Positions 158 to 38,812 of a stretch of DNA of 64,000 nucleotides are shown here, in pieces; within the stretch, counting starts at the first letter, position 1, and each line of letters starts with the position of its first letter. The notes below the pieces were generated by a model. That model made no database searches. It was not told the origin of the DNA and saw nothing but the letters and a program-made list of their open reading frames with translations. Made by a program: the position numbers and the translations under genes. This DNA comes from a virus (Duplodnaviria; Heunggongvirae; Uroviricota; Caudoviricetes), in IMG/VR virus record IMGVR_UViG_3300032241_002220, positions 25,376 through 89,375 of that record. The stretch is one strand, 5' to 3'.

Positions 158-889
158 ATGAAATTACTTGATTTATTATTGGAAGTTTATAAAGAAGAAT
201 ATGAATTGAATCTTAAAGAAGGCTTAACTAAAACTACAGAAATAGGTCAAGCAGTCAATATTCTAAAAAAACAATTCCCTGATTGGATATTTCAGTATTA
301 TAAAGGTGATAAGGATTTTACAATAGAAATTTTGAGAATAAAAAATGGTATTAACCTTGATTCTTTTGAAAAATTATTATCTTTATTAAATAATCTAGGT
401 TATTTTATTTCTTATATGGAGATATACGGTGATGATAGAGGCCGACGATTTGAAATTAAGGATAAATATGATGAAAAAATAGTTAAAAATAGTTTTCAAA
501 ATCAAGATATTTATTCCATATATTTAGAATGTGAAGCCAAATTTGATCAAACTGTTAATAAAATACCTGAATTTTTATATCATGTTGCTCCTTTAAAAAA
601 TTGGGAAAAAATCGAAAAAATAGGTTTGGTACCTAAATCAAGATCTAAAAAAGCTTTTCATCCTGATAGAGTATATTTAGGAAAAGATGAAAAAAATACA
701 TTATCTTTAGCTCCAAAATTTTATCAAATTACAGGAATAAAAGAATGGGTATTATTAAAAATAGATACAAAATCTATTCCTGGAGATTATTTTAAATTAT
801 ATTATGATCCTAATTTTAAGTATGGGTTTTATACATTAAACAATATTCCACCTTACGCTATAGAAAAAATAAAAAATATTAATATTTAA
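158..889 (+). CDS. hypothetical protein; C-terminal region weakly resembles KptA/Tpt1 RNA 2'-phosphotransferase motif
   Basis: 243 aa ORF. Segment LYHVAPLKNWEKIEKIGLVPKSRSKKAFHPDRVYL has the same spacing as KptA LYHGT..I..GL...R.YVHL, recalled from memory. Weak. Confidence 0.35.
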   Translation: MKLLDLLLEVYKEEYELNLKEGLTKTTEIGQAVNILKKQFPDWIFQYYKGDKDFTIEILRIKNGINLDSFEKLLSLLNNLGYFISYMEIYGDDRGRRFEIKDKYDEKIVKNSFQNQDIYSIYLECEAKFDQTVNKIPEFLYHVAPLKNWEKIEKIGLVPKSRSKKAFHPDRVYLGKDEKNTLSLAPKFYQITGIKEWVLLKIDTKSIPGDYFKLYYDPNFKYGFYTLNNIPPYAIEKIKNINI

Positions 890-901: not shown

Positions 902-2218
902 ATGAACAAACCATTATTTATAATCAGCTCACCTTTTGATACTTTTAGTGGCTATGGAGCTCGTAGTCGCGATATTATTAAGGCAATAATTAACCTAGAC
1001 AAATACGATGTTAAGTTAATCCCACAACGTTGGGGTCAAACACCTTGGGGATTCTGTGATAATAACCCAGAATGGGCATTTTTAAAAGAACACATTCTAA
1101 ATACACCTCAACTTCCAAAACAACCCGAGGTATGGATGCAAATTACAGTACCAAACGAATTTCAACCAATAGGAAAATATAACATTGGTGTTACAGCAGG
1201 TATCGAATCTACTGTTTGTTCTCCTGAATGGATTGAAGGTATCAATAAAATGAATTTAACTTTGGTATCATCAAATCACTCTAAAACAGTATTTGAAAAC
1301 AGTAAATTTGAAAAACGTAATCAACAAACTAATCAGGTTGAAGGAACAATACAACTTCAAAAACCAGTTGAAGTATTATTTGAAGGTGCAGATATTACAA
1401 CCTATTTCCCCTCGGATAATAGCAAAACCACTTATCCAGAACTATGGAATGATTTAAACGATATTAAAGAAGATTTCGCTTATCTTTTTGTAGGACATTG
1501 GATACAAGGTGATATAGGAGAGGACAGAAAAAACGTTGGATTGTTAATTAAAGCATTCTATGAGACATTTAAAAATAAAGCGAAGAAACCGGCCTTAATA
1601 TTGAAAACTGCGCTGGCTGGTTCATCATATGTTGATAGAGAAGAAATACTTAAACGTATTAAACAAATCAAGAAAACAGTTAATTCTAAAAATCTACCAA
1701 ACATTTATCTATTGATGGGTGAATTTTCAGATTCTGAAATGAATGGTTTATATAATCATCCTAAGGTAAAATCAATGGTATGTTTAACTAAAGGTGAAGG
1801 TTTTGGTCGCCCATTACTTGAATTTAGCTTGGTTAAAAAACCTATTATTACTACAAATTGGAGTGGACATACCGATTTCTTGGATAAGGAATTTTGTGTA
1901 ATGCTAGATGGTCAATTAACCAATGTTCATCCAAGTGCCGCTAACCAATTTTTACTTGCTGAAAGTCAATGGTTTTCACCTGATTTAGGACAAGTAGGGT
2001 TTTATTTAAGAGATGTATTTGAAAATTATAAAAAATATACTACTAAAGCCAAACGCCAGGCATATAAAAGCAAAACTGAATTTAGTTGGGATATGATGAA
2101 AGAAAAATTAGATTCAATATTTACACAATATATACCTGAATTTCCTAAAGAAATTGCTTTGAAATTACCTCAAATTAAAAAAATTGAATTACCAAAACTA
2201 AATAAAATAAATGGATAA
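902..2218 (+). CDS. glycosyltransferase family 1 (GT4-like)
   Basis: 438 aa. C-terminal GEGFGRPLLEFSLVKKPIITT matches the GT1 E-x7-E/EGFG motif. Confidence 0.6.
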   Translation: MNKPLFIISSPFDTFSGYGARSRDIIKAIINLDKYDVKLIPQRWGQTPWGFCDNNPEWAFLKEHILNTPQLPKQPEVWMQITVPNEFQPIGKYNIGVTAGIESTVCSPEWIEGINKMNLTLVSSNHSKTVFENSKFEKRNQQTNQVEGTIQLQKPVEVLFEGADITTYFPSDNSKTTYPELWNDLNDIKEDFAYLFVGHWIQGDIGEDRKNVGLLIKAFYETFKNKAKKPALILKTALAGSSYVDREEILKRIKQIKKTVNSKNLPNIYLLMGEFSDSEMNGLYNHPKVKSMVCLTKGEGFGRPLLEFSLVKKPIITTNWSGHTDFLDKEFCVMLDGQLTNVHPSAANQFLLAESQWFSPDLGQVGFYLRDVFENYKKYTTKAKRQAYKSKTEFSWDMMKEKLDSIFTQYIPEFPKEIALKLPQIKKIELPKLNKING

Positions 2219-2678
2219 CTTAACAATTTGTGATAGATGCGGCTCGGATGCTTGCTTTGTAAATGAAATTCCTTCAATAAATAGGGAAATGATCGAAACC
2301 CATCATTGTATGGGTTGTGGTTTTATTACAAACTCATTAATGAAAGAAGGAGAACAATTCCTTGAAGAACAAAAAACAGTTCTTCCTGATCTGTATAAAG
2401 CATTGTTTTACACCGATTCAGAAGGTAAAATATGGATGCCATCTGCTGTGAATCTTCCCCAACAAGGAATGATATTTGCTAATGGTAATAGTGCAGATAA
2501 TTGGAAATGGAGCGCTGTTAAGGCAGTACCCGTTACCGAAGAAGAAAAAACAAAATACCCAATCCCCGGTAAAAAGAACAAATACTACGAATTTAGAATG
2601 GACATGACAACCATGAAACATTTTGAAGAAAGAGAATACATAGACGCCCTAGAATTCATAGGTATTCTTCCAGAGTAG
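2211..2678 (+). CDS. hypothetical Cys-rich (zinc-ribbon-like) protein
   Basis: 155 aa. CDRCGSDAC...HHCMGCG cysteine pairs. Overlaps the previous stop by 8 nt. Confidence 0.5.
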   Translation: MDNLTICDRCGSDACFVNEIPSINREMIETHHCMGCGFITNSLMKEGEQFLEEQKTVLPDLYKALFYTDSEGKIWMPSAVNLPQQGMIFANGNSADNWKWSAVKAVPVTEEEKTKYPIPGKKNKYYEFRMDMTTMKHFEEREYIDALEFIGILPE

Positions 2679-2715
2679 ATTTGGAAATCCAAATACTCTG
2701 TCGTACATTTAATAC

Positions 2716-2979
2716 ATGGAAAAAATAACAAAAGAACAGTATTTAAATTATCTACGAAACGGAGCATTTGATGTTATTGTATTTTATGAATATTATAACG
2801 AATTTAATACTAAACCTGAATATAGTTTTAGTTTAGAAGACTTCAATAATATATTTAGCCATTATGTACAAACCGTAGGTTATAATAATGTTGTTAATAC
2901 TATTAGATCACATTATTCCCGTAAGTTTAATGTGTATGAAGTAACAGATAAAACAGGAAAAATTGTAGGTTATTACTAA
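2716..2979 (+). CDS. hypothetical protein
   Basis: 87 aa ORF, same-strand tight packing. Confidence 0.45.
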   Translation: MEKITKEQYLNYLRNGAFDVIVFYEYYNEFNTKPEYSFSLEDFNNIFSHYVQTVGYNNVVNTIRSHYSRKFNVYEVTDKTGKIVGYY

Positions 2980-2988
2980 AATACAAAT

Positions 2989-3618
2989 ATGAAAATAAGT
3001 TATACTGTAACGGTGTGTAATGAATTTGTAGAAATACAAAAATTATTACCCTACCTTCTAATAAATAAAAGACCACAAGACGAAATTGTAATTTTATATG
3101 ATTCAAAAAACGGTGATGAAGCCGTAGATGAATATTTAAGATCTCAATCAATAGCCAATCCGACTAATTTTTTGTGGGTATCTAGAGAATTCAACAACGA
3201 TTTTGGAGATTGGAAAAACCAATTAAGTGATTTATGTACTGGAGACTATATATTCCAAATAGATGCTGATGAAATACCTAATATATTTCTGATGAACTAT
3301 CTACATGAAGTAATAGAACTAAACCCAGAAATAGATATTTTATTGGTTCCCAGAGAAAATTATGTCAATGGTCTTACCCCAGAACATATTAAAAAATGGG
3401 GATGGAAAGTTGATGAAAATAAAAGAATAAATTGGCCTGATTTACAATGGCGTATTTATAAAAATATACCTGAAATTAAATGGGTAAATAAAGTACATGA
3501 ACGTTTAGAAGGTTTTAAAGTTTATACCCATTTACCTCTTATGTCTGAATGGAGTTTAAATCATACTAAAGACATTAAACGTCAAGAAAAACAAAATAAT
3601 TTTTATGATACTATATAA
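2989..3618 (+). CDS. putative glycosyltransferase family 2-like protein
   Basis: 209 aa. Rossmann-like N-terminus and an acidic DADE motif (FQIDADEIP) typical of GT-A DxD. Confidence 0.45.
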   Translation: MKISYTVTVCNEFVEIQKLLPYLLINKRPQDEIVILYDSKNGDEAVDEYLRSQSIANPTNFLWVSREFNNDFGDWKNQLSDLCTGDYIFQIDADEIPNIFLMNYLHEVIELNPEIDILLVPRENYVNGLTPEHIKKWGWKVDENKRINWPDLQWRIYKNIPEIKWVNKVHERLEGFKVYTHLPLMSEWSLNHTKDIKRQEKQNNFYDTI

Positions 3619-4531
3619 GGAAAAATTATCACATCAAACAAAATTAACGGTTGGAAGGATGTGGTATCAAAAAGGTAGAGAAGCATACTTTGGATTAAAA
3701 CACTTAACTGAATCTTTTCCTAATATAGAATTTGATATCCATCTTATAATTAATGATCATGAATATGTAGATGAATATACTAATAAAATAGATGATTTAA
3801 ATCTTAATATTACATTTTATAAAAAAGATTTCTTTAAAGAATATCTTCAAAAACATTATTTGTTAGATAAAGAAATAATAAATAATATTATTAATTTACC
3901 CCATTTTTATCATATAATAATAGGACATTATTTACGAAGAGTTCATTTAGTTGATTATATGTTAACTTATGAATATGACGTTGTATTTAAAGATACAGAC
4001 TTAAAAGAATTAAAATATTGTTTAGAAAATAAAATTCCTTTTGGTATAACTGAACCCCATAATATAGGATGTGATAAAGGATTATATCAACATTTATGTA
4101 ATTTATTTCAAACTGATTTAAAACAAGGAAACATTAATTCAGTTAACCCTGATTTTTTAGGAATAAATGCTGGATTTCAAGGTATTAATTTAGAATTATT
4201 TGATGAATTTTTATCGGTAAGTAATTTTACCTCTTTATTGAATATATTTGATTTTAAACCAATGATAAATGAAGATGGAACTAAACGACTAGAGGGGTGG
4301 AATCAAACAATGTATGAAACTCAAGAACAATCATTTTATTCTCTTTTAAATCAAGCATACTCTGAAAATTATATAATATTAAATCCGCAAGAATATTATT
4401 TTTGGCCATGTTGGGATGATATTCCTGAATTTGTAGAAAAATCATTACAATCAAAAGTATTACATTTTACAGGTCATAAAAAAAGTAAAGAATGGTATAA
4501 ATTCATGGATGAATACTTAAACGAAAAGTAA
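3605..4531 (+). CDS. hypothetical protein (glycan island)
   Basis: 308 aa ORF contiguous with glycosyltransferase genes. Confidence 0.5.
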   Translation: MILYKEKLSHQTKLTVGRMWYQKGREAYFGLKHLTESFPNIEFDIHLIINDHEYVDEYTNKIDDLNLNITFYKKDFFKEYLQKHYLLDKEIINNIINLPHFYHIIIGHYLRRVHLVDYMLTYEYDVVFKDTDLKELKYCLENKIPFGITEPHNIGCDKGLYQHLCNLFQTDLKQGNINSVNPDFLGINAGFQGINLELFDEFLSVSNFTSLLNIFDFKPMINEDGTKRLEGWNQTMYETQEQSFYSLLNQAYSENYIILNPQEYYFWPCWDDIPEFVEKSLQSKVLHFTGHKKSKEWYKFMDEYLNEK

Positions 4532-5484
4532 TGAAAAATATATATTTAACTACAAGTAATAATGTTATAACTGGAGGGGTAGAAGCTACTTATCAATTAT
4601 ACTATATTTTAAAACAACTAAGATATAATCCTAAACTACTACTCCTAAATCCAGGAATCCACCCTCAATTTCATCTTAATTGGTTGGATTTACATAAACA
4701 ATCTTTTATTAAAAATTATCCTGAAGTATATAAAAAATACAATATTGATGAAAATGATTTGGTTTGTGAAGTAGAAGATATTTCTGATAATTTTTTCTTA
4801 GTACCGGAAATATTTCCAGATATGTTATCTACTTTTAAATATATTCAAAAAGGTATATGGTGGTTGAGTGTAGATAATGGGTTAGGAACAGACCAAAGGA
4901 ATTTTATAATAGAAAGAAATACTCCGGATTTATGGCATTTTTACCAATCGGAATATGCTCATTGGTTTTTAATTAATAATGGAATAACAAAAATATCTAA
5001 ATTATCCGATTTTATATCCTCAGAATACAGAAATCTAAATATAAATTTATCTGAAAAAGAAAATACAATATTATATAATCCTAAAAAAGGAATTGAAATT
5101 ACTCAAAACTTAATTTCATCTAATCCTAATTTTACTTTTATTCCAATTCAAAACATGACTCCTGATCAAATAAAATCATTAATGTTGAGAAGTAAAATAT
5201 ATATTGATTTTGGAAACCATCCCGGTAAGGATAGAATACCACGAGAAGCAGCAATGTGTGGGTGTGTAGTAATAACAGGATTTAAAGGATCATCTATGTT
5301 TTTTGAAGACGTAAACATAAATAATGAGTATAAATTTGATAATATTGATGTATTTGAATTTAAATTATTAGTAGAAGATATATTTTTAAATTTTAAAAAT
5401 CACTATAATAATTTTAATTTTTATCGAAAACAAATTCAAATAGAAGAAGAACAATTTAAATTAGAAATTAAAAAAATATTTTAA
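4531..5484 (+). CDS. hypothetical protein (glycan island)
   Basis: 317 aa ORF; its start overlaps the previous stop. Confidence 0.5.
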   Translation: MKNIYLTTSNNVITGGVEATYQLYYILKQLRYNPKLLLLNPGIHPQFHLNWLDLHKQSFIKNYPEVYKKYNIDENDLVCEVEDISDNFFLVPEIFPDMLSTFKYIQKGIWWLSVDNGLGTDQRNFIIERNTPDLWHFYQSEYAHWFLINNGITKISKLSDFISSEYRNLNINLSEKENTILYNPKKGIEITQNLISSNPNFTFIPIQNMTPDQIKSLMLRSKIYIDFGNHPGKDRIPREAAMCGCVVITGFKGSSMFFEDVNINNEYKFDNIDVFEFKLLVEDIFLNFKNHYNNFNFYRKQIQIEEEQFKLEIKKIF

Positions 5485-5486
5485 TA

Positions 5487-6161
5487 ATGAAAAAAACAAT
5501 AAACGAATCTATTGAATTTTTAAAAACAATAGATTTTAAAAATATATCTCAAGAAGACCTAGAAACTATACTTCCAACATTAGGAATGAATGATGAATGT
5601 ACCCATCAAATGCCAGGAATATTATTAGATTATTTTGGATGGGGGTTAAAATTTTGGCAATACCCTAATCAATTAAGTAAATTAATTAAATTTATTTCTA
5701 CATTAAATATAGATTCTTATACAGAAATAGGATGTAGATGGGGAGGTACATTTGTTATTATTAATGAAGTATTAAAACAACAAAATCCTTATTTAAAATC
5801 TTGGGCCTGTGACTTAATAGATAAATCTGAAGTTCTTAATGAATATTCTAACTATTCTCCTTTTACTTATATCAAAAATAATTCTCATTCTGAAGATTTT
5901 GCATCAATATTTCCTAAAAATATAGATTTTATTTTTATTGATGGTGATCATTCATATGAAGGAGTAAAAGAAGATTATGAAATGATGTTAAAATTTAATC
6001 CTAGATATATGATGTTTCATGATATTTTATGTCCTGATATGGGTGTATATCAATTTTGGAATGAAATTAAAACACAATACAAGCATTACGAATTTACAGA
6101 TCAATATGATATTACAAACAATAAGGGTTTATTAGGAATTGGAGTTATAGAATTAAATTAA
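5487..6161 (+). CDS. class I SAM-dependent O-methyltransferase-like
   Basis: 224 aa. IGCRWGGT...FIFIDGDHSYEGVKEDYE resembles the Methyltransf_24/CmcI-type fold motif. Confidence 0.55.
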   Translation: MKKTINESIEFLKTIDFKNISQEDLETILPTLGMNDECTHQMPGILLDYFGWGLKFWQYPNQLSKLIKFISTLNIDSYTEIGCRWGGTFVIINEVLKQQNPYLKSWACDLIDKSEVLNEYSNYSPFTYIKNNSHSEDFASIFPKNIDFIFIDGDHSYEGVKEDYEMMLKFNPRYMMFHDILCPDMGVYQFWNEIKTQYKHYEFTDQYDITNNKGLLGIGVIELN

Positions 6162-6162
6162 A

Positions 6163-7257
6163 ATGATGTACGATTATATAATAATAGGATCTGGTTTTTA
6201 TGGTTCAATATGTGCTTATGAATTAAATAAAGCAGGATATAAATGTCTTGTTTTAGAAAAAAGAAACCATATTGGTGGAAATTGTTATACTGAAAATAGA
6301 GATGATATTAATATTCATATTTATGGGGCTCACATATTTCATACTTCAAATGAAGAAGTATGGAAATGGATTAATCAATTTGTTTCTTTTAATAATTATA
6401 TTAATTCACCTGTGGCTAATTATAATAATGAAATATATTCTTTACCATTTAATATGTGGACTTTCAGTAAACTATGGAATATTACTCATCCATATCAAGC
6501 TAAAGCAATTATAGAAGAACAAAGTAAAGAAATAAATGAACCAACTAATTTAGAAGAACAAGCAATTAAATTAGTAGGTAGAGACGTATATGAAAAATTA
6601 ATTAAAGGTTACACTGAAAAACAATGGAAAAAACCATGTGTTGATTTGCCTAAAGAAATTATTAAACGTTTACCCGTTAGATTTACGTACAACAATAATT
6701 ATTTTAATGATAAATATCAAGGTATTCCTATTGGTGGTTATACCCAAATATTTGGAAAATTATTAGCAGGTATTGAGGTTAAATTAAATACAGATTATTT
6801 ACAAGATAAAATATATTGGAATAACCAAGCCCGTAAAATAATTTATACTGGTCCTATTGATGCTTATTATAATTATCAATTCGGTGAGTTAGAATACAAA
6901 ACAACTTTTTTTGATCATAAAAAAATTATAACAGATAATTATCAAGGAAATGCAGTAATAAATTTCACAAATAAAGATATTCCTTACACCAGAATAATCG
7001 AACATAAACATTTTGAATTTGGAACTCAACCACATACATGGATATCATTTGAATATCCCGTTGATTACAAAATAGGAAAAACAGAACCATATTATCCGGT
7101 TAATGATAAAGAAAATAATTTAAAATATTCTCAATACAAAGAATTGTCTAATCAAGAAAAAAATATTATATTTGGGGGTCGTTTAGCTGAATATAAATAT
7201 TATGATATGCATCAAGTAATTGAATCTGCTTTAAATACAATTAAAACAATAATATGA
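6163..7257 (+). CDS. glf: UDP-galactopyranose mutase
   Basis: 364 aa. N-terminus YDYIIIGSGFYGSICAYELNKAGYKCLVLEKRNHIGGNCYTE...IHIYGAHIFHT matches the FAD-binding UGM signature closely. Confidence 0.85.
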   Translation: MMYDYIIIGSGFYGSICAYELNKAGYKCLVLEKRNHIGGNCYTENRDDINIHIYGAHIFHTSNEEVWKWINQFVSFNNYINSPVANYNNEIYSLPFNMWTFSKLWNITHPYQAKAIIEEQSKEINEPTNLEEQAIKLVGRDVYEKLIKGYTEKQWKKPCVDLPKEIIKRLPVRFTYNNNYFNDKYQGIPIGGYTQIFGKLLAGIEVKLNTDYLQDKIYWNNQARKIIYTGPIDAYYNYQFGELEYKTTFFDHKKIITDNYQGNAVINFTNKDIPYTRIIEHKHFEFGTQPHTWISFEYPVDYKIGKTEPYYPVNDKENNLKYSQYKELSNQEKNIIFGGRLAEYKYYDMHQVIESALNTIKTII

Positions 7258-7928
7258 AAATAATATACAGAATATCAGATGCTGGTTATAATAAAGTAAA
7301 ACCATATTACATAAACAATGAAAATTGTTTAGAGAATGCTAGTCAAGTATTTGATAAAGCTGATTGGTTAGTAATAGCAGACAATTGTTCCCAATCTACT
7401 TTAGATATTATATCCAAATATCAATCCAATATTATTAAAGTATCAGTAGGTCATGGTGCTGGAACATTTAATTTAGCATTAGATGAAGCACTAAAATATG
7501 ATGATGAAGAAATAATATATTTTGTAGAAAACGATTATTTACATAAACCAGGTTCTCAAGATATATTACTAGAAGGTTTTAACACAGGAGCAAATTATGT
7601 TGCTCTTTATGATCACCCCGATAAGTATATAGATGGAGCAAATCCGGAAGTAATAGATGGAGGAGAAATTACTAGAGTTGTATTAACTAATTCCTGTCAT
7701 TGGAAATTAACTAATTCAACAACAATGACTTTTGCTTCTGAAGTTAAAACATTAAAACAGGATGAAGAAATATTAAGACTTTATACAAAAGGTACTTATC
7801 CTAAAGATTTTGAAATGTTTCTTGCTTTAAGAGATAAAGGAAGAAGTCTTATAACTTCTATACCTGGATATTCTACACATGGTGAAACAGCTTGGTTAAC
7901 CCCTTTAACAAATTGGTCAAGAATATGA
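7254..7928 (+). CDS. hypothetical protein (glycan island)
   Basis: 224 aa ORF between glf and a GT2 gene. Confidence 0.5.
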   Translation: MKIIYRISDAGYNKVKPYYINNENCLENASQVFDKADWLVIADNCSQSTLDIISKYQSNIIKVSVGHGAGTFNLALDEALKYDDEEIIYFVENDYLHKPGSQDILLEGFNTGANYVALYDHPDKYIDGANPEVIDGGEITRVVLTNSCHWKLTNSTTMTFASEVKTLKQDEEILRLYTKGTYPKDFEMFLALRDKGRSLITSIPGYSTHGETAWLTPLTNWSRI

Positions 7929-8677
7929 TATCAGTAATTATTCCAACATATAAATCCCCCGATGCTCTTGATTTATGCCTTAAATCAGCAATTGAGGGAC
8001 AAATAAATAAAAATCAAATTATAGTTGTAGTTGATGGTTTTTATAATTTAAATAAAGATGTACTTGAAAAATATAAAGACAATATTGATATTCTTAATTT
8101 AGAAGAAAATGTTGGATTATGTCGAGGAACTAATTTAGGTGTTTACAATGCTCAATATAATAAAATATTAATTGTAAATGATGATAATGTATTTCCTAAT
8201 AAATGGGATATTACTTTAGAAAAAAATTATAGAGTAGAATGTGTAATATCTCCAAATCAAATAGAACCATATCCAAGTATGTTTAAACAATTTAAAATAC
8301 ATGACTTAGGAAGAGATCCTAAAACATTTGATTTAAAAGCATTTTGGGAAAGAGAAATAAAACTAAGCCAACCTAAGAATGATAATACAGGTTCAACACT
8401 CCCTATATTTATGTCTAAAATAGATTATTTAAGATTAGGTGGTTGGGATGAAAATTATGAGATGGGAATGGTTGCTGATTGGGATTTTTTATTAAAATGT
8501 CAATTATCTGGATTAAAAATGTTAAGAACATATGAATGTCATTTTTACCATTTTGCTTCAATCTCAGTAAATGGAGATAAAAGAAAACAAGCAGAACAAA
8601 ATGGTCACGAATATGCTAGATATAAATGGGGGAATTACATCAAACATAACCCTTATAATAATTTAAAATATTTATAA
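7925..8677 (+). CDS. glycosyltransferase family 2
   Basis: ISVIIPTYKSPDALDLC...VVDGF is the classic GT2 N-terminus. Start moved to the internal ATG at 7925 because the track ORF (7892) overlaps the upstream gene. Confidence 0.6.
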   Translation: MISVIIPTYKSPDALDLCLKSAIEGQINKNQIIVVVDGFYNLNKDVLEKYKDNIDILNLEENVGLCRGTNLGVYNAQYNKILIVNDDNVFPNKWDITLEKNYRVECVISPNQIEPYPSMFKQFKIHDLGRDPKTFDLKAFWEREIKLSQPKNDNTGSTLPIFMSKIDYLRLGGWDENYEMGMVADWDFLLKCQLSGLKMLRTYECHFYHFASISVNGDKRKQAEQNGHEYARYKWGNYIKHNPYNNLKYL

Positions 8678-12592: not shown

Positions 12593-12800
12593 AGATTATA
12601 TTTTACGTAGAGATTTTTTAATCAAACAAATGAGAAAACAAAATTTCTATTTGGAAATGGGTCTTTATAACGAAGGTTCTAAGGGTAATAAGCGAGGTCG
12701 AAAACCTGCTCCTTCTAAAAGAATTGAACGTGAAGTTAACACTAAATTATATTCACCAAAAAAATTAACAAACCAGGAAATAGATGAATTTTGGGACTAA
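12582..12800 (+). CDS. hypothetical basic protein
   Basis: 72 aa ORF. Confidence 0.4.
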   Translation: MESKDYILRRDFLIKQMRKQNFYLEMGLYNEGSKGNKRGRKPAPSKRIEREVNTKLYSPKKLTNQEIDEFWD

Positions 12801-14430
12801 TAAATTAAACATTTTAGGTATTATAGGTGGTACCCACTCTTGTGGTGTTGCCTATGTACAACAGGGAGAAGTGATAGCTGTACTTGAAGAAGAACGCTTA
12901 TCAAGAGTTAAACCATGGAAAGATTTTGAATCAGATTTTTGGAGATATCCTCTTCAAGGTTTAATAACATTACATGACCGTTATAATGTTAATTTTGAAG
13001 ATATAGATTATTTTACTAGTTTTCTTGAATATGATGTTATAGCAAATATGTTGAAAGCAACAGTTAGTTATGATTTACCTAAAGAGAAATTTTTCAAAAC
13101 GGAACATCATGAAACACATTGTGCTTTAGCTTATTATCTATCTGGTTTTGAAGATGATACTCTAATTATAGCAATCGATGGTAGTGGAGAATATCACAGC
13201 GCTAAATATTATTTAGGCAGTAAAGGTGAAATGACTTATATTGATGGAATTGGTATTGATAGAAATTCACTAGGGATGTTTTATGCTGCTATAACGGAAC
13301 TATTAGGATTTAAGCGTTTAAAAGATGAAGGTAAAGTAGTTGGAATGGCTGCTCATGGAGTTTATTGGGAAGGTATTTACAAAGCATTCCATAATGTTCT
13401 TCAAATAGAAGATATTCAAACTAATAAATCAACATTCCCCGGAAATGATACAGCAGGTGGAGATGTTTATTTAAATACTTATAAAAATTTCTTTGAAGTA
13501 GTAGGTAGTAAATGTTGGAAAAATCCTCAAGCACTTAAAGATATAGCATATACTGGTCAGTTGGTGTTTGAAGAAAAAATACTTGAATTAATTGATAATC
13601 TTCACAAACGTTATCCTAATGTTAAAAAATTAGCATTATCTGGAGGTATATTTGCCAATGTTAAATTAAATAAACGAATAAATGAATTAAATTGGGTTGA
13701 TGAAGTATTCATTACCCCACCAATGGGCGATGAAGGATTAATGTTAGGTTCGGCCTTACTTGTAATAAAACATTTTAATCCTGAATTTAAACCTGTTCGT
13801 TTATCTGATGTTTATTTTGGTAATGAATACACTGAAGATGAAGTAAATAAAGCAGCTAAATCAATTTTAGGTACTTATAATTATGTTCCTTTTAATTTTG
13901 ATTTTATTATCAGCTTATTATTAAATAAGAAAATATTAGGTTTATATCAAGGTAAAAGTGAACATGGTCCCAGAGCATTAGGTAATAGAACTATTATGTG
14001 TGAGGCGACACATCCTGAAACATATGATATAATCAATGGTAAATTGCAGCGTAACGATTTTATGCCTTTTGCTCCTGCTGTATTGGATGAAGATGCAGAT
14101 CGTTTATTTGAAATTGATAAATCAAAATATACAGCCGAGTTTATGACTATGTTGTACGATACTAAAGATGAATGGGCTGATAAATTACCTACAGTAACTC
14201 ATCCTAAAGATAAAACAGCACGTATCCAAATAGTAAAACAAAATAGTAATCCATTATTTTATCAGATACTTAAGGAATATAAACAAAAAACAGGTGTTGG
14301 ATGTTTAGTAAATACATCTTTCAATATTCATAATGAACCTATTGTGGATAAACCTGAAGAAGCATTTACCCATTTGAAAAATGGAGTTATTGATTATTTA
14401 GTAACACCGTTTGGTGTTTATAGTATATAA
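12784..14430 (+). CDS. NodU/CmcH-family carbamoyltransferase
   Basis: 548 aa. N-terminal ILGIIGGTHSCGVAYV (ASKHA/Kae1-like) and C-terminal GGIFANVKLN...PMGDEGLMLGSAL are typical of carbamoyltransferases. Confidence 0.6.
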   Translation: MNFGTNKLNILGIIGGTHSCGVAYVQQGEVIAVLEEERLSRVKPWKDFESDFWRYPLQGLITLHDRYNVNFEDIDYFTSFLEYDVIANMLKATVSYDLPKEKFFKTEHHETHCALAYYLSGFEDDTLIIAIDGSGEYHSAKYYLGSKGEMTYIDGIGIDRNSLGMFYAAITELLGFKRLKDEGKVVGMAAHGVYWEGIYKAFHNVLQIEDIQTNKSTFPGNDTAGGDVYLNTYKNFFEVVGSKCWKNPQALKDIAYTGQLVFEEKILELIDNLHKRYPNVKKLALSGGIFANVKLNKRINELNWVDEVFITPPMGDEGLMLGSALLVIKHFNPEFKPVRLSDVYFGNEYTEDEVNKAAKSILGTYNYVPFNFDFIISLLLNKKILGLYQGKSEHGPRALGNRTIMCEATHPETYDIINGKLQRNDFMPFAPAVLDEDADRLFEIDKSKYTAEFMTMLYDTKDEWADKLPTVTHPKDKTARIQIVKQNSNPLFYQILKEYKQKTGVGCLVNTSFNIHNEPIVDKPEEAFTHLKNGVIDYLVTPFGVYSI

Positions 14431-14442: not shown

Positions 14443-15021
14443 ATGAATAATACAAAATTAAGTTTTTTTAAAAAAATATACTTGTGGTGGAAATTTGAAG
14501 CAAGATATTACCACAAAGATTTTGCACACGGAGTAAAAAACCTAATCCGTTGGTTTCCAGTTATTTGGAAAGACAGGGATTGGGACGATCACTACATTTG
14601 GGAGATATGGAAGAAAAAACTAAGCTTCCAAGCCGAACACATTTACAAACACGGACACCACGTCGATAACGTTTACGATGCTGAAAGGATGAGAATATGC
14701 GTTCGTTTGATGGACGATATACAACACGAATTCTACTCAAGCGAATTCATGGATTATCACGAATCGAAGATGCACTTTATGCCTTCTGAAAAATATCCGG
14801 AATACAGCACGGTAGAAACCACCGAGCTGTGGGAGAAGTTCGATGACTATTTTGCAAAGTATCCCCATGCGTATCGTGAGGTTACAAAAACAAACAGGTA
14901 CATATTCGATAACGATTCGAAACAAAAGATAGCTATGAATATGGGTTACTATCTACACAAGAAAGCAAACAGGATATTATTTAAACTTTTAGAACGCCAC
15001 CTTGAATCTTGGTGGGATTAA
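14443..15021 (+). CDS. hypothetical protein
   Basis: 192 aa ORF, Trp/His-rich. Confidence 0.5.
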   Translation: MNNTKLSFFKKIYLWWKFEARYYHKDFAHGVKNLIRWFPVIWKDRDWDDHYIWEIWKKKLSFQAEHIYKHGHHVDNVYDAERMRICVRLMDDIQHEFYSSEFMDYHESKMHFMPSEKYPEYSTVETTELWEKFDDYFAKYPHAYREVTKTNRYIFDNDSKQKIAMNMGYYLHKKANRILFKLLERHLESWWD

Positions 15022-15025
15022 TATT

Positions 15026-15313
15026 ATGAAAAACATTATTTATATATTATTAGCATTGTTGGTTTTCTCTAGTTGTAGAACACCTAAACATGGTTGTATT
15101 TGTGATGCAAATGAATGGGATCATTTCCTTCATCATCATTCAACTTACAAGGAAAAAATATTTTATAAACCAACTAAAGTTTATAAGTACCATAAACCTG
15201 TTCCTCCTCCTGAACCTAAAATAAAGCAACCTAAAGTTAAAAAGGTAAAAGTTAAACATCACCGTCATCTTAATATAATGACTAAAGTTAAAGTATCATA
15301 TTCTAAAGACTAA
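15026..15313 (+). CDS. putative lipoprotein
   Basis: Signal peptide MKNIIYILLALLVFSSC with lipobox Cys. Start trimmed from the track ORF (15002). Confidence 0.45.
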   Translation: MKNIIYILLALLVFSSCRTPKHGCICDANEWDHFLHHHSTYKEKIFYKPTKVYKYHKPVPPPEPKIKQPKVKKVKVKHHRHLNIMTKVKVSYSKD

Positions 15314-15315
15314 TA

Positions 15316-15588
15316 ATGAATAAAATAGAACTGGTGGATAAATATAGAGACAAGAGGGGTATTAATTATATTGACGGGAAATTATGTTGTTTTATAAGTG
15401 CTGAAAGATATAATAAAGGGGGATATAGTTCTTTTCTTGATATATTTTGCAGTCATACATTTGATATTATCTTCATAGAGAGAGATGTGTATGGGAAGGT
15501 TAGGGAAGATGAACAACTTTGGCAACTGATAATGACTACGTTAGTTACTAAAGGTAAAGATATAAAAGATTGTATATTAGTTTTTTAA
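15316..15588 (+). CDS. hypothetical protein
   Basis: 90 aa ORF. Confidence 0.4.
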   Translation: MNKIELVDKYRDKRGINYIDGKLCCFISAERYNKGGYSSFLDIFCSHTFDIIFIERDVYGKVREDEQLWQLIMTTLVTKGKDIKDCILVF

Positions 15589-15598
15589 AATAAAAAAT

Positions 15599-16918
15599 AT
15601 GAATAAATTAGATAAACAATACCAAGCATTACTCCAAGACATCTTAGATAACGGAGTTAAAAAAACTGACCGCACAGGAACTGGTACTATATCAGTTTTT
15701 GGAAGACAAATACGTCACAAAATGAGTGATGGGTTTCCTTTACTTACAACAAAGAAAATGTACTTTAAAGGAATTGTAACTGAACTATTGTGGTTCTTGC
15801 AAGGTGATACAAATATTAGGTACCTTATAGATAATGGTAATACTATATGGGTAGGAGATGCTTATAAAAATTATTGTAAATTTGAACATTATAATCCTGG
15901 AACGATTATAAAATCTGATGAAAATGAGTTTGAAAGAGAAGTTATAAAGGTTGATTTAACTCAAGACGAATTTATCAACAAAATCAAAACCGATGATGAA
16001 TTTGCTAAAAAATGGGGTGAATTAGGTCCTATATATGGTGCACAATGGAGAAATTGGACTAAATTTAAAGAATATAAAGATGCTTTTGAAGTAGATATTT
16101 TAGAAGAAAATGAAGATTCAATTTCATTTTCAATGGGTACTAGTGGAATGGTTTATAAAATAGACCAAATCCAAAATCTTATTAATGACCTTAAAACAAA
16201 TCCAGATTCAAGAAGATTAATGGTTAATGCTTGGAATGTAGGTGAGTTAGACCAAATGGTTCTTCCACCATGTCATTATGGCTTTCAAGTTTATACAAGA
16301 GAGTTGAGTTTCGAAGAAAGGTGTGATTATGCCATAAAAGCAGGATGGATGTCTCCTTTGGGTGCGTTTGATTTTCCAGAAACACATTACGCATTGGATG
16401 CCTCAAAAACCCCTAAACGAGCAATCTCCCTCATGTGGAATCAACGTTCAGTAGATACATTCTTAGGTTTACCGTTCAACATCGCTTCGTACGGTTTGTT
16501 ACTTGAGATCATTGCTAAAATGGTTAACATGGTACCAGATGAACTCATAGGCAATCTCGGAGACACACACCTATATCTTAACCACATCGAACAGGCAAAG
16601 GAGCAAATCGGTAGAAAGATTTCAATAGATGAAAGAATATCTTTACTAATAAAAGCAATGGGTTATGAATCATATAAAGATGCTGTTTCAAATTTAATAC
16701 CATTTGGTGGTGGTATGAGCGAGTATTTCGAATCGTTTAAAATACCGTATTATACAAGAGAACCATATTCATTACCAAAATTGGTTCATGGTAAAACAGA
16801 TGCCTTTTATAAAACTTTATCTGAAGATTTATCTCTGTTTGGGCATTTAGATCCTGAAAATTTCACTGTGGAGAATTACCAGTCCCATCCAGCAATTAAA
16901 GCACCACTAAGTAATTAA
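15599..16918 (+). CDS. thyA: thymidylate synthase family protein with large insertions
   Basis: 439 aa. DRTGTGT, FPLLTTKK, ELLWFLQGDTN, PPCHYGFQ, LGLPFNIASYGLL and C-terminal HPAIKAPL are all present, but about 50, 30 and 45 aa insertions relative to canonical ThyA. Confidence 0.85.
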   Translation: MNKLDKQYQALLQDILDNGVKKTDRTGTGTISVFGRQIRHKMSDGFPLLTTKKMYFKGIVTELLWFLQGDTNIRYLIDNGNTIWVGDAYKNYCKFEHYNPGTIIKSDENEFEREVIKVDLTQDEFINKIKTDDEFAKKWGELGPIYGAQWRNWTKFKEYKDAFEVDILEENEDSISFSMGTSGMVYKIDQIQNLINDLKTNPDSRRLMVNAWNVGELDQMVLPPCHYGFQVYTRELSFEERCDYAIKAGWMSPLGAFDFPETHYALDASKTPKRAISLMWNQRSVDTFLGLPFNIASYGLLLEIIAKMVNMVPDELIGNLGDTHLYLNHIEQAKEQIGRKISIDERISLLIKAMGYESYKDAVSNLIPFGGGMSEYFESFKIPYYTREPYSLPKLVHGKTDAFYKTLSEDLSLFGHLDPENFTVENYQSHPAIKAPLSN

Positions 16919-22337: not shown

Positions 22338-23171
22338 ATGATATTAAACCTAGCATATCCTGAAGATTCTCAGGTAAATTTTCAAATATCTCAATTTCCA
22401 GATGGGCAACAATCTTTAACTATCCTTTCAGGTGTAGGACCTGAGGATTGTATTATTATAGGTTCCCATTTAAATTCATTTAAAGATTTAGAATTAATAA
22501 TCTGTGCCAATGTGGCTTTAAAAGAAATGGGAGTTAAAAATATTGAATTGTATGTTCCTTATTTTCTAGGTGCTCGTTCAGATAGGAAATTTGGTGAAGG
22601 TGGATTTAACTATTTAAAAACTGTTATTTGCCCTATAATCAATTCTCAAAATTTTAGTAAAGTAATAGTTTTAGACCCACATTCAGATGTACTTGAGGCT
22701 TGCTTAAATAATTTTGAAAAAAGAAGCAATATAGGAGTTGTATCTCATGCTCTTCAAGGCATTGATGCTGAAAAAGAAGATACAGTAATTATATCTCCTG
22801 ATGCCGGTGCATTAAAAAAGATATACGATATTGCTAAGGTATTTGACTTACCAAATGTAATTACAGCAGGTAAGGTTAGAGATATTCCAACAGGTAAAAT
22901 ATTAAAAACTGAATTGCCTAATATTACTCAATTTGAAGGTAAGAAATTCCTTATCATAGACGATATTTGCGATGGAGGTAGAACGTTTATTGAACTAGCG
23001 AAAGCAATTAAAGAACAACTCCCTGATGCTGAATGTTATTTATGTGTTACTCATGGTATTTTTAACCAGGGATTTGATGAATTATCAACTTATTTTAAAA
23101 AAATCTATTGTACAAATAGTGTAAAAGATTTTAATTGGAAACCTTTTATTAATCAACTAAATGTATTTTAA
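22338..23171 (+). CDS. ribose-phosphate pyrophosphokinase-like (PRPP synthetase family)
   Basis: 277 aa. YVPYFLGARSDRK resembles the Prs PYFGYARQDR motif. FLIIDDICDGGRT is a PRPP-binding loop. Confidence 0.6.
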   Translation: MILNLAYPEDSQVNFQISQFPDGQQSLTILSGVGPEDCIIIGSHLNSFKDLELIICANVALKEMGVKNIELYVPYFLGARSDRKFGEGGFNYLKTVICPIINSQNFSKVIVLDPHSDVLEACLNNFEKRSNIGVVSHALQGIDAEKEDTVIISPDAGALKKIYDIAKVFDLPNVITAGKVRDIPTGKILKTELPNITQFEGKKFLIIDDICDGGRTFIELAKAIKEQLPDAECYLCVTHGIFNQGFDELSTYFKKIYCTNSVKDFNWKPFINQLNVF

Positions 23172-23173
23172 TT

Positions 23174-23599
23174 ATGGACTTAACAAATAAATACGTTACC
23201 CGTCTTAGGAAAGAGTGGGAACAATATGGAAAAATTATAGTTGCAGTAGACTTTGATGACACTATTTCTCCTTGGAAATTTTCAAAAGAAGAACTTCAAG
23301 ACACAGTAGACTTAGTAAAAGAAGTACAACAAACCGGAGCTTATATTGTTATATTTACAGCCTGTTCTCCAGATAGATATGAAGAAATTTCATCTTATGT
23401 TAATTCTTTAGGTATTAAAGTAGATGCTATCAATCAAACACCAATAGAGATACCTTATGGTAATCATAATAAAATCTATGCCAATATCTTTTTAGATGAT
23501 CGCGCAGGACTTGAAGAAGCCAAAAAAATATTGCGAGAATGCATGTATCTTCAAAGAAGCTTTAAAAGATCGCAAATTACTTTGGACGAAGTTGGATAA
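23174..23599 (+). CDS. HAD-like hydrolase (DxDxT)
   Basis: IVAVDFDDTISP motif near the N-terminus. Confidence 0.35.
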   Translation: MDLTNKYVTRLRKEWEQYGKIIVAVDFDDTISPWKFSKEELQDTVDLVKEVQQTGAYIVIFTACSPDRYEEISSYVNSLGIKVDAINQTPIEIPYGNHNKIYANIFLDDRAGLEEAKKILRECMYLQRSFKRSQITLDEVG

Positions 23600-23657
23600 A
23601 AATTTGGCTACCTCAAACATTAGTCGTATATTTACGTAAATAAAAAATTAAAAAATT
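23600..23657 (+). promoter_or_regulatory. Bacteroidetes-type promoter (TTTGGCTACCTCAAACATTAGTCGTATATTTACGTAAATAAAAAATT)
   Basis: ATG 23658 (nadV). Confidence 0.65.
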
Positions 23658-25202
23658 ATGTTTAAACCAGTTAGTTTATTTTACACAGACGGATATAAGA
23701 TTGGCCACAAGAAAATGTTAGCCCCAGGAACTACAAAATTATATGGTACTTGGATTCCTCGTAGCACAAAATATGCTCCTACCGGTGTTACAAAAATAGT
23801 ATCGTTTGGTCAACAGCTTGTAGTTCGTTGGTTAAATGATGAGTTTACAGAACATTTTTTCAACCAACCAAAATCAGTAGCAACCCAATTTGGTAAAGAT
23901 ATGTCAATGTATCTTGGAATGGATTATGATGCTACCCATTTTGAAGCACTTCATGATTTAGGTTATTTACCTATTCGAATCAAAGCATTACCAGAAGGTA
24001 TTGAAACATTACCTAATGTTCCTCATATGACATTCATCAATACAGTAGATGGTTTTGCGTGGTTAACTTTATATTTGGAAACGATTATATCTTCATTAGC
24101 TTGGAAACCTTCAACATCAGCCACTATTGCTCTACAATATCGTAGGAATTTAGTTCAATGGGTTATGAAAACAGATCCGGCTAACGCGTGGTTGATTCCT
24201 TTCCTCGCACACGATTTCTCTGCTCGTGGTTTATCTCCTTGGGACATGTTATCAAGCGGTTTAGGACATGCTACTTCGTTTAGAGGTTCTGATACCATTA
24301 TTTGTATTCCTGGTGCTCGTTATTTTTATAATGAACCTGAAAATGAAGTTTGTATCAATTCGGTAAATGCTTCTGAACATAGCGTTTCAACAACTAAAAT
24401 CTTTACAGTTGGTGAACAACAAATGATTGCAGATTGGTTGGTTGATTTTCCTAAAGGAATATTATCAATTGTATCAGATACGTTTGATTTGTGGAAGTTG
24501 ATTACCGAATACTTACCTGCAAACAAAGAAGCAATCATGGCTCGTGATGGTAAGTTGGTTATCCGTCCTGACTCTGGTGATCCGGTTGATATTATTTGTG
24601 GGTTAAACACTAAAACTAAGGTTGAATATTTTCAAAATGCTGATGCTCCAGATGTTAAAGGTGTAATCGAATTACTTTGGGAAATCTTCGGTGGTACAAT
24701 CAACGAACAAGGTTACAAAGTTCTTGATCCACACATCGGAGCCATTTACGGTGACTCAATTACATTGGAACGTCAAATTCAGATTTATGAAAGGTTAGCG
24801 GCTAAAGGTTTTGCTTCAACTAATATTGTACTCGGTGTTGGTTCTTATACATACCAAATGAATACTCGTGATACTTTAGGTTTTGCTGCTAAAGGTGCCT
24901 GGTTTGAAGTTGAAGAAGAATACGATGCCACTCCAGAAGAACATGGAGAACCAGTTGTTGATTTTTATATACCTGGATTTAATAAAATAGGTTACGACAT
25001 CTACAAAGATCCAGTAACCGATTCAGGTAAAACAAAGAAATCTTTGAAAGGTCTTATCATGGTAGATGAAAATCTTGAAGTACACACCCAATGTACACCT
25101 CAACAAGAGGCTCAAGGTTTATTACAAACCATTTATATGGATGGTAAATTCTACAATCAAACAACATTAACTGAAATTCGCGCTAAACTTGAAAAGCTAT
25201 GA
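23658..25202 (+). CDS. nadV: nicotinamide phosphoribosyltransferase
   Basis: 514 aa. N-terminal LFYTDGYKIGHKKM...TKLYGTWIPRS matches the NAMPT/NadV signature. Size fits. Confidence 0.8.
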   Translation: MFKPVSLFYTDGYKIGHKKMLAPGTTKLYGTWIPRSTKYAPTGVTKIVSFGQQLVVRWLNDEFTEHFFNQPKSVATQFGKDMSMYLGMDYDATHFEALHDLGYLPIRIKALPEGIETLPNVPHMTFINTVDGFAWLTLYLETIISSLAWKPSTSATIALQYRRNLVQWVMKTDPANAWLIPFLAHDFSARGLSPWDMLSSGLGHATSFRGSDTIICIPGARYFYNEPENEVCINSVNASEHSVSTTKIFTVGEQQMIADWLVDFPKGILSIVSDTFDLWKLITEYLPANKEAIMARDGKLVIRPDSGDPVDIICGLNTKTKVEYFQNADAPDVKGVIELLWEIFGGTINEQGYKVLDPHIGAIYGDSITLERQIQIYERLAAKGFASTNIVLGVGSYTYQMNTRDTLGFAAKGAWFEVEEEYDATPEEHGEPVVDFYIPGFNKIGYDIYKDPVTDSGKTKKSLKGLIMVDENLEVHTQCTPQQEAQGLLQTIYMDGKFYNQTTLTEIRAKLEKL

Positions 25203-34523: not shown

Positions 34524-34605
34524 TAGTCAGGTGGTGGAATTGGATAGACACAACCTCGCTCGGAGGTATAAGCGCAAACTTACAGGTTCGAATCCTGTCC
34601 TGACT
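34524..34605 (+). ncRNA. tRNA-like gene (class II architecture) with defective anticodon arm
   Basis: Acceptor AGTCAGG/CCTGACT is perfect. D-arm GTG..CAC. Variable hairpin TAAGCGCAAACTTA. T-arm ACAGGTTCGAATCCTGT. The anticodon stem ACCTC/GAGGT encloses only 5 nt (GCTCG). Confidence 0.4.
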
Positions 34606-34714
34606 ACAGATACTCTAACAGGCGCCAACCTGTCCCTATGGCGGGGCTAAGTAGAGTCAGTATTTTAAAACATAAAAATCAAAAAATAGGGCCTTTGTTT
34701 TTTATTATAATACG

Positions 34715-34870
34715 TTCCGGGCCGGTGCCGGGGTAAGATCTGGTGCCGGCCGTACGGCGTATATATTATGATAGTATTAGGATACCACGCGCGCTGATGT
34801 CCATCGATACGGCGGGCGGTGGAGAAAAGGATTAGATTAAAAGACAGAGCCTCTACAAATCCTCCACCAC
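34715..34870. repeat. GC-rich palindromic island (CCGGGCCGGTGCCGGGG / GGTGCCGGCCG, CGCGCGC, GGTGGAG...CTCCACC long hairpin)
   Basis: About 60% GC over 150 bp in a roughly 30% GC genome. Repeated GGTGCCGG. Non-coding. Confidence 0.55.
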
Positions 34871-34973
34871 CGATTGTATATACCTATATACTACCCCCAT
34901 TCATGGATTGGTTTTTCGAAATGGCAAACTTTTCTAAAATCCACAAAAAACAAAAAGAAAGATCTTTATAAAA

Positions 34974-35412: not shown

Positions 35413-35413
35413 T

Positions 35414-35737: not shown

Positions 35738-35741
35738 AATT

Positions 35742-38804: not shown

Positions 38805-38812
38805 ACAAACAA

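Follow-up and report, generated by a model that had tools for sequence, protein, structure and literature searches.

What does a bacterial virus build with a dozen clustered glycan genes, a UDP-galactopyranose mutase (Glf) among them, and to what is the product attached? Phage-encoded glycosylation has so far been encountered in three narrow settings, namely DNA glucosylation or arabinosylation, serotype conversion by temperate phages and the virion glycans of mycobacteriophages, and both phage glycosyltransferase (GT) clusters and phage glf genes were already known. Here we report a glycan-biosynthesis island located at the start of a 64,000-nt stretch of IMG/VR virus record IMGVR_UViG_3300032241_002220 (positions 25,376 to 89,375 of the record; hereafter the window, whose numbering is used throughout). 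The window is part of the approximately 160-kb genome of an immuto-like myovirus, about 100 kb of which lie outside it. The island has a different design, in which a conserved core is followed by an O-antigen-like exchangeable cassette, here a galactofuranose (Galf) block. We propose that it is a self-contained cytoplasmic glycan-assembly operon whose most likely acceptor would be a virion protein of the phage itself, or several of them, a reading to which we assign a probability of about 45%.

The window contains eleven plus-strand open reading frames (ORFs) of the island between positions 158 and 8677, whose ends overlap or almost abut and which are all intact, with no pseudogenes among them. 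The whole island comprises twelve genes in one plus-strand block, seven of them predicted GTs, and starts about 1.3 kb before the window. Its upstream boundary is provided by a public-assembly contig of the same phage (L086), position 7763 of which corresponds to window position 1: the 478-aa GT-B gene of the island (GT478) ends at window 156 and is preceded by genes for GroES/GroEL, a clamp-loader-like AAA protein and a PD-(D/E)XK nuclease. The island is in synteny with genes 90-102 of Flavobacterium phage immuto, where the counterpart locus is likewise genome-internal, and its setting is one of early/middle genes, among replication and nucleotide-metabolism genes. A first, sequence-only reading of the window had described a co-linear block at the genome edge with at least three GTs (one GT1 and two GT2-like), an S-adenosylmethionine (SAM)-dependent methyltransferase, a Glf and three unknown proteins. 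Co-linearity, the GT1-type enzyme (a GT-B protein with a full-length match to PHROG 2170, although below the Pfam GT1 cut-off), the GT2 enzymes and the methyltransferase (Methyltransf_24/CmcI-like) are all borne out by our data. The edge position is an artefact of the window, the number of GTs in the island rises to seven, and two of the proteins taken as unknown, one GT8-like and one GT-B-like, are glycosyltransferases as well.

The core of this lineage consists of a pair of GT-B paralogues (GT478, 478 aa; GT438, 438 aa), a Zn-ribbon protein and a GT2 enzyme, and after this core comes an exchangeable cassette. Core-gene counts refer to the best 80 of the 108 confirmed IMG/VR relatives of GT438, which are found on contigs of up to 210 kb; the occurrence of GT438 in 80/80 loci follows by construction of the locus set. 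GT478 was present in all 77 loci with enough upstream sequence and directly adjoined GT438 in 75 of them, while the Zn-ribbon protein lay beside GT438 in 55/80 loci and the core GT2 was found in 60/80. GT438 is 59% identical to the product of immuto gene 91 and 45% identical to its homologue in Microcystis phage Mel-JY01, and these two phages were the only ones to be hit when the core GT-B was compared by tblastn with 50,697 phage records. Mel-JY01 has a matching locus layout and shares a baseplate wedge protein at 45% identity, and the baseplate and fibre genes of the window (51-64 kb) match proteins of immuto (160 kb; host Flavobacterium) at 26-63% identity. In a large protein collection GT438 has at least 8000 metagenomic homologues; identity to it is 73% or higher throughout the best 120, and no named bacterium is among these. 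The carrier is an abundant lineage of large aquatic myoviruses, kin to immuto and Mel-JY01.

The cassette was sampled in the 9.5 kb 3' of the core GT-B gene in 42 loci, whose 506 ORFs fall into 182 clusters. Among the 31 loci with both flanks, the downstream 8.5 kb gave 132 clusters, with 29% of ORFs in widely shared ones, as against 69 clusters and 56% for the upstream 8.5 kb; diversity after the core is roughly double that of the upstream flank. The cassette of the present phage codes for a GT8-like enzyme, a 317-aa GT-B-like protein, an O-methyltransferase, Glf and two GT2-type enzymes. In its relatives the cassettes contain, among the 25 commonest of 72 Pfam families, GT2, at least four methyltransferase classes, CTP_transf_3 cytidylyltransferase, epimerase/dehydratase, DegT aminotransferase, PseB-like dehydratase, PIG-L deacetylase, and formyl- and hexapeptide acyl-/acetyltransferases, a content that amounts to a nucleotide-sugar toolbox. 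Cassettes are reshuffled as modules. The block of 317-aa GT, methyltransferase, Glf, GT2-like and GT2 genes recurs with other middle genes in L170, L172, L193, L220 and L231, and its five-gene order is kept in several related phages with 47-87% protein identity; the cassette of L085 combines DegT, the GT8-like gene (87% identical), TylF, an unknown gene and a GT2. The composition of the two halves of the island also differs, with a GC content of 0.315 in the core and 0.317 in the rest of the window versus 0.251 in the cassette (0.121 at third codon positions), and the codon-usage distance of the cassette, 0.109, is about 3 standard deviations (sd) away from its null (0.064 +/- 0.015).

The assignment of Glf is certain at the level of sequence, and the enzyme is predicted to supply UDP-galactofuranose. 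The protein passes the profile searches whose failure would have refuted the call: it matches PF03275 (3.5e-73, 246 bits) and PHROG 9677 (2.5e-130), and scores 406.2 bits over residues 2-364 against the NCBIfam equivalog TIGR00031, whose cut-off is 303.75. It retains the FAD-binding Rossmann motif GxGxxG (IIIGSGFYGS, residues 6-15; NAD_binding_8, 5.9e-22) and is 56% identical to Glf of E. coli K-12 over 364 residues, with no large gaps (E 2e-158), so the view of the locus as a glycan-biosynthesis island with a genuine Glf stands. Galf is missing from mammals, and its pathway is hence a drug target. Its rating as unusual phage cargo has to be given up: 429 IMG/VR contigs carry a close Glf relative, and Glf has a PHROG of its own. 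We had ourselves considered glf unique to this phage, given its absence from the 80 core-GT loci (0/80), a view overturned by the Glf-centred scan of IMG/VR: in at least 23-28 of the best 80 of the 429 Glf contigs, island core genes lie within 9 kb 5' of glf. Glf is a frequent cassette gene and common viral cargo. In the 80 genome loci that we inspected, no bacterial Glf is more than 61% identical to that of the phage.

Which enzyme would use the Galf donor is suggested by gene neighbourhood. The 317-aa protein encoded two genes before glf has 4502 homologues, none with a Pfam domain. Single-sequence searches of PDB with this protein, and with its 308-aa GT8-like neighbour, returned noise only, and a profile built from 26 homologues of the 317-aa protein matched AmGGT (8xsg; 4.7e-4), which is a GT-B enzyme (PMC12159676). 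A glf gene lies within 8 kb of the family member in 48 of 80 bacterial and archaeal loci from many phyla; in 36 of these 48 the gap between the family match and glf is below 100 bp, and glf is nearly always upstream on the same strand. The glf-adjoining proteins, of about 320-340 aa, come from Bacteroidota, Proteobacteria, Firmicutes, Spirochaetes, Elusimicrobia, Aquificae and one archaeon. The Flavobacterium faecale homologue overlaps glf at the end of that gene and belongs to a lipopolysaccharide (LPS)-core cluster that also encodes a Kdo kinase, a GT9 heptosyltransferase and several GT2 enzymes. The family looks like an unrecognised glf-coupled glycosyltransferase family, and it is this coupling that makes the 317-aa protein a candidate galactofuranosyltransferase. 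E. coli WbbI, the characterised Galf transferase with which it was compared, showed no detectable similarity to it (hhalign probability 0.2%, BLASTP E 0.15), and we rejected the idea of a WbbI homologue.

The variable half of the island is preceded by a promoter-like element. By k-mer enrichment, the decamer CGTAYATTTA was found 19 times in the window, where 0.63 occurrences are expected. Every copy is on the plus strand and upstream of a start codon (15-35 nt before it), between positions 2680 and 43797; there is none in the structural module (49-64 kb) and none in the 7.7 kb 5' of the window. The copies share the layout TTTGG, 16-18 nt, TCGTAYATTTACGTAAATAAAAA (for example at 11059, 18197, 23625 and 37964), which we take to be similar to the Bacteroidetes promoter type with TTTG at -33 and TAnnTTTG at -7. 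Transcription from the copy in the island (Table 1) would cover the 87-aa ORF, the core GT2 and the cassette, and the element hints at genes of an early/middle class and at a host among the Bacteroidota. The motif is not kept at this position in the relatives L085, L170 and L172. A generic scan for sigma-70 promoters and terminators between 1 and 12 kb did not exceed shuffled sequences.

How these enzymes might work together can be outlined as follows. The core enzymes would link a conserved inner stub of sugars to the acceptor and lengthen it; Glf would turn host UDP-galactopyranose into UDP-galactofuranose, from which the 317-aa GT-B-like enzyme would add Galf, with the remaining transferases adding more residues and the methyltransferase modifying or capping a sugar. 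Such a route would yield an oligosaccharide that contains Galf, is partly O-methylated and has at most about seven residues. Virion proteins would be glycosylated in the cytoplasm, before or during assembly, and cassette diversity would yield strain-specific surface glycans on virions. A phage protein is the most likely acceptor because all enzymes are soluble and genes for a lipid carrier, flippase, polymerase or ligase never occur with the island. No island protein has a membrane-spanning segment (the highest Kyte-Doolittle mean over a 19-mer is 1.38 versus a threshold of 1.6), none of the 506 cassette ORFs of the 42 relatives has two or more hydrophobic segments, and the suggested search for a flippase or an acetyltransferase among the island proteins (Pfam, NCBIfam and the hydrophobicity scan) found neither. 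Furthermore, the core GTs are kept, at 45% identity, between phages reported on hosts of different phyla, which argues for an acceptor that is universal or supplied by the phage.

A precedent for such a scheme is found among the chloroviruses. In a profile search with 28 homologues, the best solved relative of GT478 was B736L of chlorovirus NY-2A (5.5e-18, the next match being at 5e-9), and B736L was also the best PDB match of the GT438 profile (5e-5). The capsid glycans of chloroviruses are built by soluble virus-encoded GTs and combine an inner core that is conserved with outer parts specific to each virus and a methylated cap (PMC7019647). Like the chlorovirus system (Vp54 of PBCV-1; GTs A064R and A546L/B736L) and the clade-specific clusters of mimiviruses, the island encodes soluble transferases with no signal peptide or anchor, and it would match the chloroviruses in the plan of a conserved inner and a variable outer part and in the capping methyl group. 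Unlike the chlorovirus genes, which are dispersed, those of this bacterial virus form a clustered operon, with a Zn-ribbon partner and Galf chemistry. Among phages, capsid and tail-tube subunits of mycobacteriophages are reported to bear glycans (PMC12619734, citing Freeman et al. 2023). The mycobacteriophages of the Che8, Corndog and Myrna type (Freeman et al. 2023, as cited in PMC12619734 and PMC11256854) likewise have a GT operon outside the structural module, the products of which are, in those phages, glycans on capsid and tail-tube subunits. No sequence kinship with the mycobacteriophage systems was detected in the tblastn search of the core GT, and the present locus differs from them in being much larger (seven GTs plus sugar-nucleotide enzymes), in its core/cassette layout and in its Gram-negative aquatic hosts. 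A stronger form of the proposal, which we regard as possible but advance only tentatively, is that of strain-specific virion "glyco-serotypes", in which a conserved primer module would start the glycan on structural proteins and exchanged cassettes would finish it without host export.

The acceptor is the weakest link of the virion-protein proposal, and several observations weigh against it. Capsid and tail-tube genes lie outside the window. LPS-core and O-unit transferases, too, are soluble or peripheral, which makes the lack of membrane proteins compatible with a host lipid-linked acceptor, and the closest bacterial context examined for the 317-aa family is an LPS-core cluster. The variable half follows a motif that is absent from the structural module, with no obvious co-regulation with virion genes. 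B736L itself has no known acceptor (PMC9614988) and is also among the HHpred matches of the T4 DNA glucosyltransferases (PMC6024577). An AlphaFold2 model of the core GT-B (27 sequences of 73-99% identity) reached a pLDDT of 55, too poor to be used. Our literature search found nothing on glycosylation in immuto or Mel-JY01, and a marine phage proteomics paper contained no phage glycan data. Ser/Thr-rich stretches are present in fibre-like proteins of the window and in a capsid-adjacent protein of immuto, but such stretches are common and the scan does not discriminate. The immuto protein in question (MW353175, 128874-130514; 546 aa, 34% Ser+Thr) is encoded directly after the major capsid gene, and a second immuto protein of 474 aa (14444-15868), whose gene has genes for lectin- and cohesin-domain proteins nearby, contains a Ser/Thr/Gly/Gln tract of low complexity; to name either as an O-glycosylation acceptor is speculation. 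In the virion module of Mel-JY01 (PP395634, 4750-8430), a gene annotated as a 1226-aa FkbM methyltransferase lies beside a structural protein gene.

An unlikely alternative, but one to be taken seriously, is that the island remodels the host envelope: the transferases would act at the inner face of the host membrane, where their substrate would be a lipid-linked intermediate of the host (lipid A-core or a unit linked to undecaprenyl diphosphate), host export would display the glycan, and the benefit would be a block to superinfection or a smaller loss of progeny on cell debris. The enzymes do resemble transferases for LPS, O-antigen and exopolysaccharide (NCBIfam for the last GT2; WbbM and LgtC folds for the GT8-like protein), and the island shares with bacterial O-antigen, capsule and LPS-core loci (E. 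coli K-12 rfb, Klebsiella WbbM) its conserved flanks around a hypervariable, low-GC middle as well as Glf, the GT8 fold, GT2, capping O-methyltransferase and a 317-aa family member beside glf, the last as in the F. faecale LPS-core cluster. Low GC is typical of surface-polysaccharide loci, hypervariable cassettes are expected of cell-surface selection, and the variable half stands behind an early-type promoter-like motif. Set against this, an initiating phosphoglycosyltransferase, flippase, polymerase, ligase, ABC exporter and Gtr protein are absent from the island and from the 506 cassette ORFs of the relatives, and host export systems would have to accept a foreign glycan of about seven sugars. 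In comparison with bacterial polysaccharide loci, this virus-borne locus lacks Wzx, Wzy, WaaL, Wzm/Wzt and an initiating transferase, and its candidate Galf transferase has no detectable similarity to WbbI. Moreover, the core GTs are common to phages whose reported hosts, Bacteroidota and a cyanobacterium, have different envelope glycolipids, and the core GT family occurs in no named bacterial genome among the best 120 of its homologues. An autonomous surface-polysaccharide pathway, or one of Gtr-type serotype conversion, is unlikely: the membrane proteins GtrA, GtrB and GtrC and the O-acetyltransferase of serotype-conversion modules were not found in the island, nor were Wzx, Wzy, WaaL or any other membrane protein. 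A further point against envelope remodelling is that the window showed neither an integrase nor a lysogeny gene. Of the three uses offered by the sequence-only reading, serotype conversion is accordingly disfavoured, as is DNA hypermodification (see below), and virion glycosylation remains the best fit.

Attachment of the oligosaccharide to a modified base of the phage genome, where it would evade restriction systems and DNA glycosylases, is distinctly improbable. It has a precedent in Rhizobium phage RL38J1, which encodes Glf as part of its own nucleotide-sugar supply and carries galactosyl-glucosyl chains on 5-hydroxycytosine (5hoC) (PMC13326640), and the GTs that phages use on DNA are of the GT-B and GT-A types and were recruited from the pathways for LPS and teichoic acid (bioRxiv 10.1101/2023.12.21.572611). 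The island resembles DNA hypermodification clusters (T4 a-gt/b-gt; the arabinosyl-5hoC systems of RB69 and DLP3; RL38J1; MT-5mYOX-GT) in its soluble, LPS-like GT-B and GT-A enzymes and in its early-gene position, amid replication and nucleotide-metabolism genes and 3' of an early-type motif. The immuto annotation lists a DpdA/preQ 7-deazaguanine DNA-modification pathway together with an NTP pyrophosphohydrolase and a thymidylate kinase; the FolE, QueD, QueE, QueC, QueF and DpdA genes of immuto (MW353175, 18607-37015) have no homologues seen in the window. However, the known DNA sugar modifications all need a hydroxyl handle, made by a hydroxymethylase, a 5hoC synthase or a methyltransferase plus TET/JBP dioxygenase (PMC13326640; bioRxiv 10.1101/2023.12.21.572611), and no TET/JBP dioxygenase, C5-methyltransferase or hydroxymethylase was found in the scanned ORFs of the window, which leaves about 100 kb of genome outside, in the immuto annotation or among the 25 commonest cassette Pfam families, a weak negative. 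The sole thymidylate synthase (ThyA) homologue (15599-16918) looks canonical: it matches the E. faecalis and E. coli enzymes (3e-68 to 1e-63) and retains the PPCH cysteine, the dUMP-specific Asn of FNIAS and the IKAP C-terminus. With 439 aa, it has three insertions relative to solved enzymes (about 155-187, 236-276 and 343-409) and all catalytic motifs, a long form also present in immuto and several metagenomic relatives. ThyA orthologues lie near the island in only 5/160 loci, T4 alpha- and beta-GT are not among the PDB matches (E <= 0.1) of either core profile, and seven GTs, with the nonulosonic-acid-type, formyl and amino-sugar genes of the relatives, exceed the trisaccharide that is the maximum of known DNA glycans; such clusters have far fewer transferases and tailoring genes. 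We consider it highly improbable that the variable half is a mere passenger, made up of host polysaccharide genes that were acquired recently and have no role specific to the phage. Its GC content, its codon usage and the bacterial relatives of two of its families (the 317-aa protein and Glf) would fit such an origin. The recent host insertion that the earlier reading named as a refuting case is countered by the conserved five-gene block and by the distance to bacterial Glf, the distinct composition of the variable half notwithstanding; in addition, the ORFs are intact and tightly overlapping, and cassettes always lie 3' of the conserved core. What probability remains after the virion, envelope and DNA targets falls to a passenger role or to an acceptor we have not considered.

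Coordinates and supporting matches of the island features are compiled in Table 1.

Table 1. Features of the glycan-biosynthesis island (window coordinates unless stated otherwise).
Feature	Position	Strand	Evidence and remarks
GT478, first core gene, GT-B (GT4-like), 478 aa	3' end at 1-156; L086 6482-7918; starts 1281 nt before the window	+	Pfam GT1 23.9 bits, below cut-off
243-aa ORF between the two core GT-B genes	158-889	+	PF01885 (Tpt1/KptA) 17.6 bits, below cut-off; GC 0.231
GT438, core GT-B, GT1/GT4-type, 438 aa, most conserved island gene	902-2218	+	PHROG 2170 2e-18, full length; Pfam GT1 23 bits, below cut-off
Zn-ribbon plus C-terminal domain protein, 155 aa	2211-2678	+	Start overlaps GT438 stop; weak Zn-ribbon matches
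Promoter-like element: TTTGG, 17 nt, TCGTACATTTA	2680-2711	+	5 nt before ATG at 2716
87-aa ORF	2716-2979	+	No family match (Pfam, NCBIfam)
Core GT2 (GT-A), 209 aa	2989-3618	+	PF00535 26.2 bits; 53% identical to immuto gene 93
GT8-like retaining GT-A glycosyltransferase, 308 aa; cassette begins here	3605-4531	+	Fold comparison
GT-B-like protein, 317 aa, Pfam-less family, candidate galactofuranosyltransferase	4531-5484	+	Profile match and glf neighbourhood
SAM-dependent methyltransferase, TylF/CmcI sugar O-methyltransferase type	5487-6161	+	PF13578 (Methyltransf_24) 36 bits; PF04989 18 bits
UDP-galactopyranose mutase (Glf)	6163-7257	+	PF03275, TIGR00031, PHROG 9677
GT2-like protein, 224 aa, weak assignment	7254-7928	+	PF00535 20.5 bits, below cut-off
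GT2, last island gene	7892-8677	+	PF00535 47.4 bits; 24% identical to immuto gene 102

Among the smaller core proteins, the Zn-ribbon protein, with its ribbon at the N-terminus, is probably a non-catalytic partner. Its 467 representative clusters are all stand-alone proteins of about 150 aa, with zero fusions; an invariant acidic or His residue of catalytic type is absent, and a PDB profile search returned generic Zn ribbons only, none of them significant. The 243-aa ORF between the core GT-B genes, with a homologue in 1/80 loci, is restricted to this phage and its closest relatives, and a PDB search with it gave no useful match. At the position equivalent to the 87-aa ORF, the close relative L085 has an ORF of 85 aa.

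At the start of the cassette, the 308-aa protein is a glycosyltransferase of GT8-like fold according to its structural model. Fold comparison placed it in the GT-A class with GT8 members as its nearest neighbours and WbbM and LgtC as top folds, while GlfT2 and GfsA appeared as distant GT-A folds only. By sequence, membership in Glyco_transf_8 was not found, with Pfam, NCBIfam and both single-sequence and profile searches of PDB empty, although its motifs NAGFQGINL and HFTGHKK are, we presume, reminiscent of GT8. The methyltransferase had no useful match in a PDB search; TylF/Methyltransf_24 genes occupy its position in L170 and L172. The weakly assigned GT2-like protein is paired with the last GT2 in L076, L079, L170, L172, L193, L220 and L231. 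For the last GT2 itself, the ATGA overlap with the preceding stop and a public gene call of 250 aa indicate that the true start is probably the ATG at 7925.

Profile scans of the rest of the window revealed, besides the canonical thymidylate synthase, a carbamoyltransferase, genes for salvage of nicotinamide adenine dinucleotide (NAD) and genes of RNA-repair type. The carbamoyltransferase (12784-14430), of NodU/CmcH type, is encoded 4 kb 3' of the island (Carbam_trans_C, 4e-53) and could be a candidate for O-carbamoylation of a sugar; homologues lie near the island in 2/80 relatives (L060, 39%; L038, 26%). The NAD-salvage pair (22338-25202) consists of a phosphoribosyl pyrophosphate synthetase-like protein and a nicotinamide/nicotinate phosphoribosyltransferase. 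The RNA-repair-type set, scattered at 25663-26799, 45249-46790, 47123-48051 and 158-889, includes an RNA ligase, a TROVE/Ro-like protein, a protein with a cyclic-phosphate receiver domain (cREC_REC) beside an RNaseH-like protein and, in the island, the weak Tpt1/KptA-like ORF. An array of 21 tRNA genes and a 394-nt transfer-messenger RNA with the tag peptide EDALAFVDGEFALAA spans positions 34525-48446.

The lineage that carries this locus is very common in aquatic metagenomes, as judged from the at least 8000 homologues of its core GT and the 429 viral Glf contigs, and a widespread protein family without any Pfam domain gains a testable function from it, that of a glf-coupled candidate galactofuranosyltransferase. 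Were virions to display the glycan, it would have consequences in natural waters for phage adsorption and stability, for the stickiness of particles and for their recognition. With immuto and Mel-JY01, both in culture, the question of the acceptor is open to direct test. If virion glyco-serotypes exist as proposed, they would be the bacterial-virus counterpart of the autonomous glycosylation of giant viruses, and an O-antigen-like, diversity-generating locus would enter phage biology.

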